A stretch of 64,000 nt of DNA, from contig OX597821.1 of the NCBI GenBank assembly GCA_951406725.2, positions 32,922,001 through 32,986,000 of the forward strand. The letters run 5' to 3'. Origin of the DNA: Octopus vulgaris. Lineage: Eukaryota. Below, piece by piece: positions 27,979-64,000 of the stretch; position 1 is the first letter of the stretch; each line of letters begins with the position of its first letter. The notes beneath the pieces are model-generated. The model ran no database searches. It was given only the letters and a program-made list of their open reading frames with translations, and was not told the DNA's origin. The position numbers and the translations under genes were made by a program.

Positions 27979-28179
27979 CATATGTATTTATATATATATA
28001 TATATATATATAACGTGACGTATTTTTGCCATTTCAATATGGCTAACCCCTAAGGGTGGATGCTACTGTAGTTTTTAGCCCCAGGAGGACACACTCCTCC
28101 AGCTGGCCATAGACACACTTTCTGTGTCCTGTCAGTATTTGCAAAGGGAAGTCATCCTTCCCGTCTTCAACTTATGATA

Positions 28180-28224
28180 CACATGGACTCGAGTTTCGAG
28201 GTATTGACCTCTCGTCAGCGTGTG
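28180..28224 (-). ncRNA. Type I hammerhead ribozyme motif
   Basis: Reverse complement of 28710-28754. Confidence 0.85.
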
Positions 28225-28709
28225 ACAATCATAGTTGTCGCCGAGAATTAGATTTCCTTCACAAATACTTATACTTTTTCCAGCGTCCACTGTCGCTGAT
28301 ATTGAAAAAGTGAAATCAAACAATGATAAATATCAATGTGAGTTATATATACAGTAGCGGTAACACAACGTGACGTATTTTTGCCATTTCAATATGGCTA
28401 ACCCCTAAGGGTGGATGCTACTGTAGTTTTTAGCCCCAGGAGATACTGACAGGACACAGAAAGTGTGTCTATGGCCAGCTGGAGGAGTGTGTCCTCCTGG
28501 GGCTAAAAATTACAGTAGCATCCACCCTTAGGGGTTAGCCATATTGAAATGGCAAAAATACGTCACGTTGTGTTACCGCTACTGTATATAACTCACATTG
28601 ATATTTATCATTGTTTGATTTCACTTTTTCAATATCAGCGACAGTGGACGCTGGAAAAAGTATAAGTATTTGTGAAGGAAATCTAATTCTCGGCGACAAC
28701 TATGATTGT

Positions 28710-28754
28710 CACACGCTGACGAGAGGTCAATACCTCGAAACTCGAGTCCATGTG
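28710..28754 (+). ncRNA. Type I hammerhead ribozyme motif (minimal, palindromic stem III)
   Basis: CACACG-CTGACGA-GAGGT caat ACCTC-GAAA-CTCGAG-TC^-CATGTG. Complete CUGANGA/GAAA/GUC core. Confidence 0.88.
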
Positions 28755-28982
28755 TATCATAAGTTGAAGACGGGAAGGATGACTTCCCTTTGCAAATACT
28801 GACAGGACACAGAAAGTGTGTCTATGGCCAGCTGGAGGAGTGTGTCCTCCTGGGGCTAAAAACTACAGTAGCATCCACCCTTAGTGGTTAGCCATATTGA
28901 AATGGCAAAAATACGTCACGTTGTGTTACTGCTACTGTATATAACTCACATTGATATTTATCATTATATATATATATATATA

Positions 28983-38796: not shown

Positions 38797-38962
38797 AGGC
38801 GGAGGAGTGACTGTGTGGTAAGTAGCTTGTTTACCAACCACATAGTTCCGGGTTCAGTCCCATTGCGTGGCACCTTGGGCAAGTGTCTTCTGCTATAGCA
38901 TCGGGCCGACCAAAGCCTTGTGAGTGGATTTGGTAGACGGAAACTGAAAGAAGCCCGTCGTA

Positions 38963-46623: not shown

Positions 46624-48022
<1,399 letters not shown>

Positions 48023-49039: not shown

Positions 49040-50434
49040 ATGGTCAAGATTGGTTGTGTGAATGCGCGTGGCTTGGGGTCTCCTTGGAAACAAGGATACC
49101 TCCTAAATGACATCAAGTCACACGATTTGGGAATCATAGCCATAAGTGAGACCAGACTCCACGAGCCACGGGCCCTAAAGTCCATGTTTGGCGGACAGTT
49201 TAACATTTATTTTGCTCCCTGTCTGCCGAGGATGGGCAGTAGTGGCACCACGGTACTTTTTCACAAGAGCCTGGATCTCGAAGTCAAGACGATATTCGTA
49301 GACCCGGAGGGTAGACTGGTCGTTCTGGATGTCGACGGCAGTAATGGGTGCGCTTTTCGACTCGTTTCAGTCTACGCACCGCCTTTAACAGGTCGGCCGG
49401 ATTTCTTTCGACGTCTAGAAGTATTCCTGGGAACGTCTCGTCCTTTACTTTTAGTGGGGGATTGGAATGCTACCTTGGACACGCATCTAGACTATGTGGG
49501 GAGAGACAAAAACAGAAGGGGATGCAAATGCCTCAGAGACCTGCTCAGATGATTCCAACTGTCTGACAGGTACCGACTCGACCACCCAAATGCACCAACG
49601 TGGACATGGAGCAACCGCATCGGATCGTCGAGATCGTATCTAGATAGGATACTGTGTAGGACAGTAGACAAGGATAACTTAGGATGTCCACAATTCCACA
49701 CAGTCAGCTACACGGATCACAAATTCGTGACGTGTACGCTAGACTTAGATAAGGCACATAGACAGGGTCCTGGTTACTGGAAACTGAATGCATCATTCCC
49801 GTACAGACAAGTTTTCAGAGACAGAATCAACACGTTAGTAAAAAGGGCTTTAACGGGAGCCATTGTCAACAACAAATGGTTGTTCGCCCTCAAGAGAGCA
49901 GTAAAAGCGGAAGCAATAAGATATAGCAAGGCACTAGCCGTAGATAGAAATAGAGTAGAGGGTGAGTTAGTTAAGAAGTTAGAGGAGGCAATAAGAAGCG
50001 GCTCACACCCGACGTTTTGGCAGCAAGGTTGGCCCTTGACCAACACTTCAACGCCAAACACGAAGGGTGTGCTGTCAGGGCTAGGATGCGAGCTCTAAGG
50101 ATGGAAGGTGTTGGAGCCGCGAGGGAGGCCCGGGTGGCGGAGGCGCAGCAGGGCAACAAAGCCATCATTCGGTCTCTGGTAGATGAACAAGGGCGCGAAT
50201 TGCTCGAGCCCAGCAAGATGTGCGAGACATTTCAGCGGCACTTTGCCCGACTGTACGGGACGAGTGGTGAGCGTGAACGCAGGGTGGACTGTAGTGCCTA
50301 CCTGCACAGCCTACCACGACTCTCGGCAAGAGAGGCAGAGTGCTGCGAAGGTGCCATCACGGCGGCGGATGTGCGGGACGCGATGGCAGAATGCTCGAGA
50401 GACAAATCGCCGGGTTTGGATGGTCTGCCCTACG

Positions 50435-50436
<2 letters not shown>
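49040..50436 (+). pseudogene. Tx1/L1-clade ORF2 N-terminal half: APE endonuclease plus linker (inverted segment)
   Basis: GCVNARGL, ISETR, SVYAP, GDWN, SYLDR, YTDH, GYWKLNAS, KSPGLDGLPYE. In-frame stop at 49550 and frameshift near 50010. Ends in (GATA)n just before the RT core. Confidence 0.95.
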
Positions 50437-60335: not shown

Positions 60336-60425
<90 letters not shown>

Positions 60426-60427
<2 letters not shown>

Positions 60428-61583
60428 CTAAGTAATCAAGGGTTTAGCAACGGATTGCCTCACCAACACACCGAATTTAGAAATAGCAGTCAAAGAGATA
60501 TAGCTATTCCTTCTACTAAAAGGGGGATCTCAGTAAAACACAGACAGGTAAGAAAGAAAGAATGAAATGACGGCAATCCATCATGCAATTTTAAGTTACC
60601 TACGGACGTACGTTTCGAGATCAAGTTTTAGGATATCATAAGAATTAGAAAATTCTACTTTACCCAGACTTCTTCTCTCATCGGCGCAGGATACTACAAT
60701 TGTGAATAATTGTATATTAAATTTTGAGATACTAGAATGCGTCATCTCAACTCAGTGTCAGAGCGAGCCAAAGCATGACCAGTACCACGAAATTCAAAGT
60801 TTGAATGAAAGTTTGTGTCACCAGCCCCCTTCCACCCGCGTGCAGCCAAGACAAAATGCTGTGGTCATTTACTGGGATAAAATATGGTTATCAGTAATAA
60901 TAAAAGGGTGAAATTAATTAATTAGGGATAATTATCAATTACACCAAGTAGATTTCGGTATGTAAAAGCCCCATTCGAGGAAAATTTAAGTAATACTAAG
61001 TAATCAAGGGTTTAGCAACGGATTGCCTCACCAACACACCGAATTTAGAAATAGCAGTCAAAGAGATATAGCTATTCCTTCTACTAAAAGGGGGATCTCA
61101 GTAAAAACACAGCACTTAAAAGGCAAACACAGACAGGTAAGAAAGAAAGAATGAAATGACGGCAATCCATCATGCAATTTTAAGTTACCTACGGACGTAC
61201 GTTTCGAGATCAAGTTTTAGGATATCATAAGAATTAGAAAATTCTACTTTACCCAGACTTCTTCTCTCATCGGCGCAGGATACTACAATTGTGAATAATT
61301 GTATATTAAATTTTGAGATACTAGAATGCGTCATCTCAACTCAGTGTCAGAGCGAGCCAAAGCATGACCAGTACCACGAAATTCAAAGTTTGAATGAAAG
61401 TTTGTGTCACCAGCCCCCTTCCACCCGCGTGCAGCCAAGACAAAATGCTGTGGTCATTTACTGGGATAAAATATGGTTATCAGTAATAATAAAAGGGTGA
61501 AATTAATTAATTAGGGATAATTATCAATTACACCAAGTAGATTTCGGTATGTAAAAGCCCCATTCGAGGAAAATTTAAGTAAT
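60426..61583 (-). mobile_element. Tandem dimer (568/589-bp units) of a hammerhead-bearing non-coding element in (TA)n
   Basis: Units start at 60426 and 60994 and appear identical except for a ~21-bp indel. (TA)n on both flanks. Confidence 0.9.
60599..60690 (-). ncRNA. Variant type I hammerhead (CCGAUGA core, long stem II insertion), second copy at 61188-61279
   Basis: Minus strand CCTGCG-CCGATGA-GAGA...(long insert)...TCTC-GAAA-CGTACG-TC^-CGTAGG. Confidence 0.75.
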
Positions 61584-61591
61584 ATAAACAG

Positions 61592-61666
<75 letters not shown>

Positions 61667-61698
61667 GGCGCAGGAGTGGCTGTGTGGTAAGTAGCTTG

Positions 61699-63969
61699 TC
61701 TAACAAACATGCGCAGTTAGTCAGTTGCTTCCTGTTCAGCCAGAGTGGACGCGAGTCAACCAGCTCCGTCCAATTAAAGAAAAAAGACCAAAAACGGAAA
61801 GTTGTCGAGGTAAGTGATTTTGTTTATTGTGAGTTGGGCATGATTTATTGCGTACCAATTATTATTTCAGTAAGTTGTGTCCAACTCTGAGACAATTTAG
61901 CCTGCTCTCGGCGGCTGCCGTTTTTGTGTTCATTGAAAAAAAAAAAAAGAAAAAACAGTGGAGGGGCGTATCCTCAGAATTCAATACAGTTACTGTTAAA
62001 ATTACCTTTGGCGGTAGCCAGTGCTGTGTTTGGGTTTGTTGAATTTATTCCCTTGTCAGAGTACTTCGCAAGAAAATTATAAAAATAAGCCACTATTGGA
62101 TTACCTTTCGGACCCATTTTTGTGGAGGTTGTGTTGCAATTGCGGCGTTCCAGGTTCAACCCAGGCCGGGAGTACCGCAAGGCCAGAATATTTTTGCTGT
62201 GTTTTTTCTGTTTATTAACTTTCTTTTGAACTTCATTTAACCCCCCTTTTGTTTTTTTTTCTTTATTGCGACTTTCCGTTAATGTCTTCCCTTCTGTTGT
62301 GCTTTCTCTTTTTTGTTTTTTCAAAAATCTATCAAATTTTATTTGGACTTTTGAACTTTTTTCTTCCTGCTTTTTGAGTTTAATTTGAATATATTTAAAA
62401 AAAAACATGGCAATGAAAAATAACAAAATTTTGGAGTGGGAAATCATACCACCTAAAAAGTGGTTAAAAGACCGTGAAGATAGGATGGTGGTGTTGAGAA
62501 CCTACTCGAAGGCACTCGACACCATCGCCCTATTCGAAAAGACGGCAATTGAAAAGGAGTTGGAAGAGTATTTGCCAACAATTAAATTCATTTCCAGGGG
62601 TGTCAAATATGCAACGGTGTGGTTGCTATTTGACACCCCTGAAGAGGCTTGCAAATTTGCTAGCAAACCCCTGGAGGGTAAGGAAATCTTAAATCCTGCC
62701 CACGTACAAAAGAAAGAAATTGATGAAAGCTTGAATCTGCGGACTGCCACCCGACATAGAACCCGAGTGGATAGAGGAGACTATCCCCCGGGGTCTGGGT
62801 GACAGCGAAACTAAGCTCCTCAATGTAAAAGTTCTTCCTGCGGCTGCTTGGGTTGGGTCAAAAGAAATTTTGACCCTGTGGACCCAATCAGCCAATCTGG
62901 TTCTTCCAGATTTTTTGAAAATGACCGGGTGCAGGTACCCGGTGATGCTTGAGGGTCGCCCTCCCCCCCCCCTAAGTGTCATCGGTGCTTGGAGTCCGGC
63001 CACATAAAGAAGAACTGTCCTCGGGAACAAAATAGGATCCCGGAACAGTTAAGTAAAACCCCTCTAGAAGAGGGAACGATAACGGCCGAGAAAGCAGAGG
63101 ACTCCTCAAACAGAGGCCGAAAGAGGAAGGTGAGCAACAATGGGTGCTCACCAAAGGATAATAGGGATGAGGAGAGGAAGGCGAATCTTCCAGCCACGGA
63201 GGAGACGCACCCTCCCTCAGTTGAAAAGGGAAAAAAAAGAAAAAGAGGAAGAAAAACGGGACATCACCGGCTGTCAGTGTAGCACCGGAATGTCCCGGAA
63301 CTACGTCGGTTGGGGTTGTGCCACCGACAAGAGAAGGAATACCGTTGGCGGGAACTGTGCCGCCAACGAAAGAACTGAACGTATTGGTCCTCTTCTATAG
63401 AGGAGGAGAAATTGAAAAAGTGATGGAAGAGCACTACAAGGGAGCACCTTTAGCCTTCACACAGGACCCCGAATGGCCTCCGCAGGTAACTGTGGAGGCC
63501 GTGGCGTTCGACGTGACGCTTGGGCTAAAGGAGCTCAATGAAGATTATAACTTGGTCCCGGGCGACGCGAACTCGGAACTTGATTACGTTCTGAGGGAGG
63601 CGTGGTTGATGGTGGAGGGCGCGGGCACAAGCTATTTCGAGGACGATATGTAATTATTGAACTGTTATTATTAGTAATGGACTTAAGTCCAAAAATTGAA
63701 AAATTGTAAGAGGATTAATACCTCGTTTTGTATTAATAATGGACTGCTAAGTCCAAAAATTGGAAAAATTGTAAGAGGTTTAATACCTCGTTTTGTGTTT
63801 ATCTTTAAAAAGAACAATGTTTTAGAGAAGCGAAAGTCGGCGGGCGCTTTTTGTCTTCTCCCATCCTTATCATCTTTCTTTCATTATCATTCACCTCATT
63901 AATGTCCTCGTCCAGCCCGCAAAGCTAACTTAATCTGTGTACTGCCTTTATGGCAAATGTTTTGAAATA
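61699..63969 (+). mobile_element. ORF1-only (HAL1-like) Tx1-clade non-autonomous retrotransposon
   Basis: TSD AAGTAGCTTG at 61689-61698 and 63970-63979, ~700-bp 5' UTR, ORF1, short 3' UTR with hairpin and AATAAA. No EN or RT. Confidence 0.8.
62407..63653 (+). pseudogene. Tx1-type ORF1 (RRM-like region plus CCHC zinc knuckle), frameshifted
   Basis: VWLLFDTPEEACKF..(shift) ILPTY..ICGLPPDIEPEWIE..PVMLEGRPP..KCHRCLESGHIKKNCP (knuckle 62977-63018), then a charged tail. Confidence 0.85.
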
Positions 63970-64000
63970 AAGTAGCTTGCTAACCAACCACATGGTTCCG

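Follow-up and report, generated by a model that had tools for sequence, protein, structure and literature searches.

A frameshifted copy of an ORF1-only LINE family inserted at one base of an octopus SINE and probably copied in trans by a partner LINE

The interrupted SINE at the end of the window

The window analyzed here comprises 64,000 nt of the Octopus vulgaris genome (contig OX597821.1, positions 32,922,001 to 32,986,000 of the forward strand). Close to its right end, a SINE is interrupted by a unit measuring 2,271 nt between its AAGTAGCTTG target-site duplications (Table 1), in agreement with the ~2.27 kb of an initial annotation made from this stretch only. That annotation also correctly described a SINE head upstream and a SINE body downstream of the insertion, a 3' UTR of ~315 bp (316 nt after the last stop at 63653), an AATAAA that overlaps the target without poly(A) after it, and the lack of EN and RT, to neither of which any match was found within the unit. 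The ORF1 reported there is present, but in the window copy it does not form one frame and is split into four, due to a single-base insertion at ~62693, an insertion of 8-9 bases at ~62960 and a shift in an A-run at ~63235. The first two breaks occur in the window copy only (0/19 sister copies), and the A-run at the third varies in length across the family. With regard to the RRM-like and CCHC motifs assigned to ORF1, two RRMs are indeed predicted, but the CCHC match scores 18.4 bits against a Pfam cut-off of 20.8 bits.

Table 1. Features of the interrupted SINE and the inserted unit (positions in the window)
Feature	Position	Strand	Remark
5' part of host SINE head	61666..61688	+	94% identity to the intact SINE at 38797
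Left target-site duplication AAGTAGCTTG	61689..61698	+	sequence
5' junction: extra T, own target-like CTAAC, GCACATGCGCA-type motif	61699..61715	+	
5' UTR, ~0.7 kb	61700..62406	+	occurs within the family in two or more interchangeable versions
ORF1, broken in the window copy; two predicted RRMs in first ~185 aa	62407..63653	+	
CCHC zinc knuckle (candidate)	62977..63018	+	PF00098, E 0.0023, under the curated cut-off
C-terminal region, specific to the ORF1-only lineage	63270..63650	+	
3' UTR, 316 nt	63654..63969	+	includes a 63-nt tandem duplication at 63669-63796
Tail motif GCAAAGCTAACTT	63919..63931	+	complementary to the target top strand, two bulges in the window family
Terminal stem-loop TGCC-TTTAT-GGCA	63943..63955	+	common to half-element and autonomous partner
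AATAAA (last four element bases plus first two target bases)	63966..63971	+	sequence
Right target-site duplication (63970-63979), then SINE body	63970..64000	+	SINE body runs past the window end

The Inr-like motif CAGTTAGTCAGTT at 61714 had been taken as the start of the element, an assignment that had to be given up because full-length copies begin ~14 nt upstream of it, at CTAAC. A second 5' subfamily has no CAGTTAGTCAGTT motif and carries the GCACATGCGCA-type motif inverted. The latter motif, which we take to resemble an NRF1-type site, is found in forward or inverted orientation at the 5' ends of different subfamilies (window 61705-61715; L036, L175) and has two changes in the window copy. 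Self-comparison of the unit revealed the 3' UTR duplication alone and no terminal repeats, and the domain search found no integrase, recombinase or transposase domain in it; hence, an identity as LTR, DIRS or DNA transposon was rejected.

The host SINE is ~170 nt long, ends with a tail of (TA)n-type repeats and exists in very high copy number, including an intact, uninterrupted copy at 38797-38947 in the window. The insertion point lies directly after the segment TGGCTGTGTGG at 61677-61687 of the SINE head, which we take to be A-box-like. The intact head is colinear with the tRNA-Lys(TTT) genes of the genome (z up to 5.9 against shuffles, in a comparison set of 30 tRNA loci with few isotypes); ARAGORN and Rfam did not call it as tRNA, and Rfam returned sub-threshold matches alone, the best of them on (TA)n repeats. 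Exact empty SINE sites number at least 68,385 in 2.8 Gb, which corresponds to ~1 in 80,000 strand positions, and an older SINE variant reads AAGAAG instead of AAGTAG at the landing site. Since the insertion places 2.3 kb between the A-box-like and B-box-like halves of the SINE, the hit copy is probably silenced.

Two further structures were noted in the window. Positions 60425-61584, which directly precede the (TA)n run and the SINE, contain two tandem units of ~580 nt that are 96% alike. At 28012-28922, two arms of 338 nt are 100% complementary and 235 nt apart, with a spacer that repeats the start of the arm; this structure is either a fold-back element or an assembly artefact.

An ORF1-only family and an autonomous partner at the same site

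The last 23 nt of the element were found in 220 exact copies in the genome, of which 215 continue with AAGTAG and five do not. Because the site occurs at so few strand positions, this targeting is not a matter of chance. A query free of target bases, which ended 9 nt before the junction, led to the same site in 30/30 cases (30 of 40 matches listed, window locus included), hence the flanks are not random and the SINE is the specific target that the initial annotation had envisaged. Likewise, full-length copies were expected to be devoid of ORF2, and this was found in 20/20 fetched copies of 2.1-2.3 kb each, which are the best matches of one query containing 11 target bases. These ORF1-only copies are called half-elements in the following. 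A pattern excluding the young 3' end yielded 107 junctions, and among the 30 examined there were 17 older half-element relatives, one EN-RT element and one further family.

An autonomous LINE with a common 3' end and target, also predicted from the window copy, was found in the L161 family. L161 extends over 5,457 nt between the same target duplications as the half-element and encodes ORF1 and an ORF2 with EN, RT and zf-RVT domains (PF03372, PF00078, PF13966), the closest solved structure of which is L1 ORF2p (E 1e-66). The homologues of this partner carry no clade names, and its designation as L1/Tx1-type rests on the domains and the structure match. Both ORFs are open in L219, one of 20 partner loci examined. 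All 30 partner copies listed are followed by the target, a kind of sequence preference that is common in the Tx1 clade, with 26 of them continuing with the SINE body and four with another element, and a 3'-end pattern common to the partner and some half-elements ends at the target in 197/223 cases. Partner copies are ~98% alike and similar in age to the window family, and in the RT tree the partner is nested in an octopus radiation with non-targeting sisters that are 66-74% identical in RT. The best 30 zf-RVT matches were considered as partner and rejected, since they belong to other LINE families with neither the common 3' end nor the target.

Several observations on the surrounding LINE population should be mentioned. 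The window itself contains fragments of other L1/Tx1-type ORF2s at 47477-47968 (minus strand) and 49043-50436 (plus strand), with 51-57% identity to the partner. Extra ORF1-like frames directly precede other full LINEs in L119 (273-1766) and L121 (71-1616, both oriented) and are possibly further half-elements. Non-targeting sister LINEs (L081-L091, L111, L113, L117, L125, L128) end with AATAAAGAAA, which resembles the junction AATA/AAGAAG at the older SINE variant, and the targeting may have originated from such microhomology between element end and target. The sister-LINE pairs L114/L115, L120/L122 and L118/L121 have common 3' flanks within each pair, hinting at other target preferences. Further families with a different tail were found at the same SINE site (L240, L247, L253, L260 and L239, L162); four of these match ORF1 at only 25-28%, lack any ORF2 match in the 1.5 kb adjoining the junction, and thus possibly represent a second ORF1-only lineage. 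Moreover, elements form head-to-tail stacks at one site in L043, L221, L222, L223/L224, L225 and G000:C5:78748207-78756165, the last with five ends spaced by ~1,985 nt; partner and half-element are mixed in the stacks of L221, L222 and L225.

The DNA sequence that half-element and partner have in common is limited to the last ~36 nt (78%), which include the terminal stem-loop. Its four pairs are formed in 90.8% of 120 cells, and 12/120 cells changed on both sides, a value reached in 0/500 shuffles, with relatedness uncontrolled. Upstream of it lies the tail motif, which was compared at 61 junctions. Fifteen of these did not match the pattern of the family end and were excluded, including the true family members L134, L244 and L258 missed by this pattern; of the remaining 46 tails, 13 have no single motif. 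At AAGTAG sites, AGCTA is present in 15/15 tails with a motif. At AAGAAG sites, 16 tails showed AGCTT and two AGCTA, and after removal of two of the 16 as matches to the SINE head, AGCTT accounts for 14/16 true tail motifs, with L241 and L257 (AGCTA) as exceptions. In predicted folds, the tail motif was paired with the read-through target in 3/3 tails; hence, from these models, the motif most likely forms a hairpin with read-through target bases in the RNA.

It could be assumed instead that the RNA co-reads the site, with the tail motif pairing to the displaced top DNA strand and the read-through to the bottom strand. The way in which the variable motif base tracks the target would fit to such an RNA-assisted targeting, as does the fact that the switch is seen in the partner lineage (L156 versus L231) as well as in half-elements, with differing distance to the end, and the mean duplex energy of -10.8 kcal/mol for the 46 tails compared to -5.3 kcal/mol for 13 tails of non-targeting LINEs. 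However, the tail rows are relatives and therefore stand for about two independent changes, the two AGCTA tails at AAGAAG and the 13 tails without single motif do not follow the rule, the motif of the window family is bulged and yet 98% of its ends are on target, and the hairpin with RNA read-through accounts for the same covariation. We therefore consider a direct reading of the site by the RNA as rather unlikely.

Still less probable in our view is that another, unsampled LINE at the same site mobilises the half-element. It would be in line with the distance between the ORF1s of half-element and partner and with autonomous copies of older age at AAGAAG sites (L231, L238), and the junction matches examined were 30 of 107 and 30 of 128; however, no young EN-RT family other than L161 was found at the AAGTAG site, and L161 is similar in age to the window family.

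Independent insertions and a separate ORF1 lineage

The half-elements at this site might also have been multiplied by hitch-hiking, i.e. after a single insertion, SINE head and body would have been amplified together with the element and the flank inherited. The young copies are mostly full length and 17/30 of them reside in one SINE subtype, as would be expected from such a process, but the hosts overall span several subtypes, and divergence amounts to 6.5% for the host SINE bodies compared to 2.8% for the elements, i.e. the hosts are 2.3 times more diverse, without correlation between both values (Mantel r -0.17, p 0.89, n = 30). The 30 young elements were picked by likeness to the 3' query and divergence was measured outside the query; rows of partner copies were left out because the pattern had matched them falsely, at an internal position. 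Truncated copies were used by Kojima 2015 to test hitch-hiking (accessible part of PMC4494074). In our data set, the 5'-truncated L171, L172 and L174 are joined to the SINE head and retain duplications of 8-16 nt, and the 5'-truncated L233, L235 and L237 likewise show SINE head and duplication. Furthermore, a private G in the target of L036 is duplicated on both sides of the element, and a partner of unrelated length as well as older families are found at the same base. Joint amplification with the SINE thus appears very improbable; the half-element copies were inserted independently, and the ORF1-only family was amplified by retrotransposition, as seen from its duplications and 5' truncations. 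In 6/6 young copies and 4/4 single partner copies with CTTAC or TTTAC in the downstream target, the 5' side nevertheless reads CTAA(C/T), indicating that the true duplication comprises ~8-12 nt, the element supplies the rest and the site is thereby rebuilt.

Some half-elements are chimeric (L024, L179, L036, L038, L040, L044, L048) and combine a young 3' part with another 5' UTR or an older ORF1 N-terminus, which suggests template switching between subfamilies.

The half-element ORF1 resembles the ORF1s of other LINEs of its own genome (24-35% identity, E 5e-30, with a match in 19/20 fetched loci), and its closest named protein is a relative annotated in Octopus sinensis; relatives outside these two genomes were not found. 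The first 205 aa of ORF1 from a sister copy were modelled with a pLDDT of 84, and the best fold matches of the ORF1 model are tandem-RRM proteins (E 2e-4), at TM-scores of just 0.24-0.39. In a tree of 32 ORF1 rows, the 12 half-element rows including the O. sinensis protein form a clade with 100/100 support, and the 20 rows of other LINE ORF1s fall outside, under long-branch warnings. The partner is likewise outside the clade, with an identity of 29% to the half-element ORF1 compared to 34% for a non-targeting family. The half-element ORF1 is thus not closest to that of the partner, and its origin cannot be explained by a simple deletion in the latter. Judged from these alignments, the half-elements represent an old, separate clade within the L1/Tx1-type LINE ORF1s of the same genome.

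The dN/dS analysis proposed in the initial annotation gave ratios of 0.13-0.26 between subfamilies when L167 was excluded and 0.15-0.44 when it was included with its out-of-frame stretch; the corresponding dS values of 1.0-2.1 are near saturation, and within subfamilies ratios of 0.31-0.98 were obtained. On the basis of these substitution ratios, the half-element ORF1 is under purifying selection. An unbroken ORF1 was present in 0/20 fetched copies and the frame is kept across the A-run before the C-terminal region in 15/37 copies, hence the translated source copy was not seen among them. The C-terminal region itself is conserved at 31-56% identity in 13 further half-element loci and has no match in 21 autonomous-LINE loci; a search of 1.84 billion proteins yielded no credible relative, the one match being spurious and due to a repeat protein. 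Its model is of low confidence (pLDDT 44), and no Atlas match was obtained for the region. The idea that the window copy arose from a full LINE by a singular internal deletion, which its broken state and its resemblance to a LINE without ORF2 might suggest, can practically be dismissed, given the short structure of all 20 copies, the 100/100 clade of ORF1-only subfamilies with their own C-terminal region and the annotated relative in O. sinensis.

Proposed mechanism and comparison with known systems

Taken together, the family structure, the targeting, the independent insertion, the partner with the same target, the 3' stem-loop and the selection on ORF1 are borne out. We are confident that the window unit is a frameshifted copy of an ORF1-only LINE family residing at one SINE base, and that the EN/RT of the partner likely copies it in trans. 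According to this model, a source copy would be transcribed from a promoter at its own 5' end, and the transcript would read briefly into the SINE, where AATA together with AA of the target would complete the poly(A) signal. The half-element ORF1 protein might coat its own RNA, and the 3' stem-loop might recruit the ORF2 protein of the partner, which would nick the bottom strand before AAGTAG. Read-through bases of the RNA could then anneal to the primer, in a manner comparable to R1Bm, in which accurate reverse transcription needs downstream target sequence (accessible part of PMC7265360). Copying would start exactly at the junction, such that no poly(A) would be copied. Finally, a second nick staggered by 8-12 nt, together with the CTAAC of the element, would restore the 15-nt site at either end of the element, thereby permitting later elements to stack. 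At the level of contigs, presumed RNA runs cover the element piecewise and show no loose end with poly(A).

One could go further and assume that the tail is a guide complementary to the site, which was re-tuned twice after SINE mutations and pairs with the displaced strand, with the C-terminal domain of the parasite as an adaptor capturing the partner ORF2. We regard this extended version as speculative and give it only a small chance; if it were true, site choice would be partly RNA-programmed in an APE-type retrotransposon. In any case, the covarying tail motif offers a direct way to test what the RNA contributes to site choice, a question relevant to the use of site-specific LINEs as insertion tools. 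Moreover, the position of the partner among non-targeting sisters allows the acquisition of specificity by an APE endonuclease to be studied between close relatives, and the conserved, lineage-specific ORF1 speaks to the question why half-LINEs retain an ORF1 of their own.

Among the known elements, Dewa targets tRNA arrays. Like the octopus system, Dewa and Keno (U2) are sequence-specific for multicopy DNA related to small RNAs, but they are autonomous and their targets are host genes or spacers, whereas all examined flanks of the octopus elements consist of the SINE or another stacked element. ORF1-only derivatives of LINEs are represented by HAL1 of mammals, HeT-A and Ag-Sponge (accessible parts of PMC5753468 and PMC5786205). 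As far as described there, HAL1 is similar to the octopus half-element in being non-autonomous, with ORF1 alone and LINE-type ends; the half-element differs by its origin in an octopus L1/Tx1-type radiation, the RRM-RRM-CCHC architecture with its own C-terminal region, the lack of poly(A) and its SINE specificity, and the accessible parts of both papers report no such specific target for HAL1. An identity with HAL1 proper, which is derived from mammalian L1, was rejected, since ORF1 relatives were found in the genome analyzed here and in O. sinensis alone and the ORF1 is of CCHC type.

Regarding L1/Tx1 elements and octopus SINEs, the openly accessible literature that was searched described neither the insertion of ORF1-only or other L1/Tx1 elements into octopus SINEs as a specific target nor a protein-coding half-LINE with its partner at one SINE-head base. 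L1-Tx1 families are named without targets in the accessible parts of PMC13282606 and its supplement, and those of PMC8967140 and PMC4758252 contain no mention of a SINE-targeting element in octopus.

Close parallels are also seen in transposon-targeting members of the Tx1 clade, as far as they are presented in the accessible part of PMC4494074: Tx1 of Xenopus targets Tx1D, Tx1-Mar targets Mariner-N4_AMi and has SINEU as passenger, and Tx1-8_Crp, Tx1-4_AMi and Tx1-9_AMi are further examples. These systems likewise combine an APE-type LINE and non-autonomous passengers at one site in another transposon, with duplications of ~10-16 nt and tandem stacks. However, they target DNA or LTR transposons whereas the octopus elements target a SINE head at the A box, SINEU has poly(A) tails while the half-elements have none, and, unlike those passengers, the octopus passenger encodes a protein under purifying selection. 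Concerning the tail, R1Bm and SART1Bm also use target-like RNA at or near the 3' end for accurate priming; according to the accessible part of PMC7265360, these sequences correspond to the top strand and pair with the bottom strand after it has been nicked, in contrast to the octopus tail motif, which shows complementarity to, and covariation with, the top strand. Hence, ORF1-only LINEs on the one hand and transposon-targeting Tx1 elements with their passengers on the other hand are known separately, and the octopus genome presents a parasite system of three levels, with a SINE, a LINE landing at one base of this SINE, and protein-coding passengers of that LINE.
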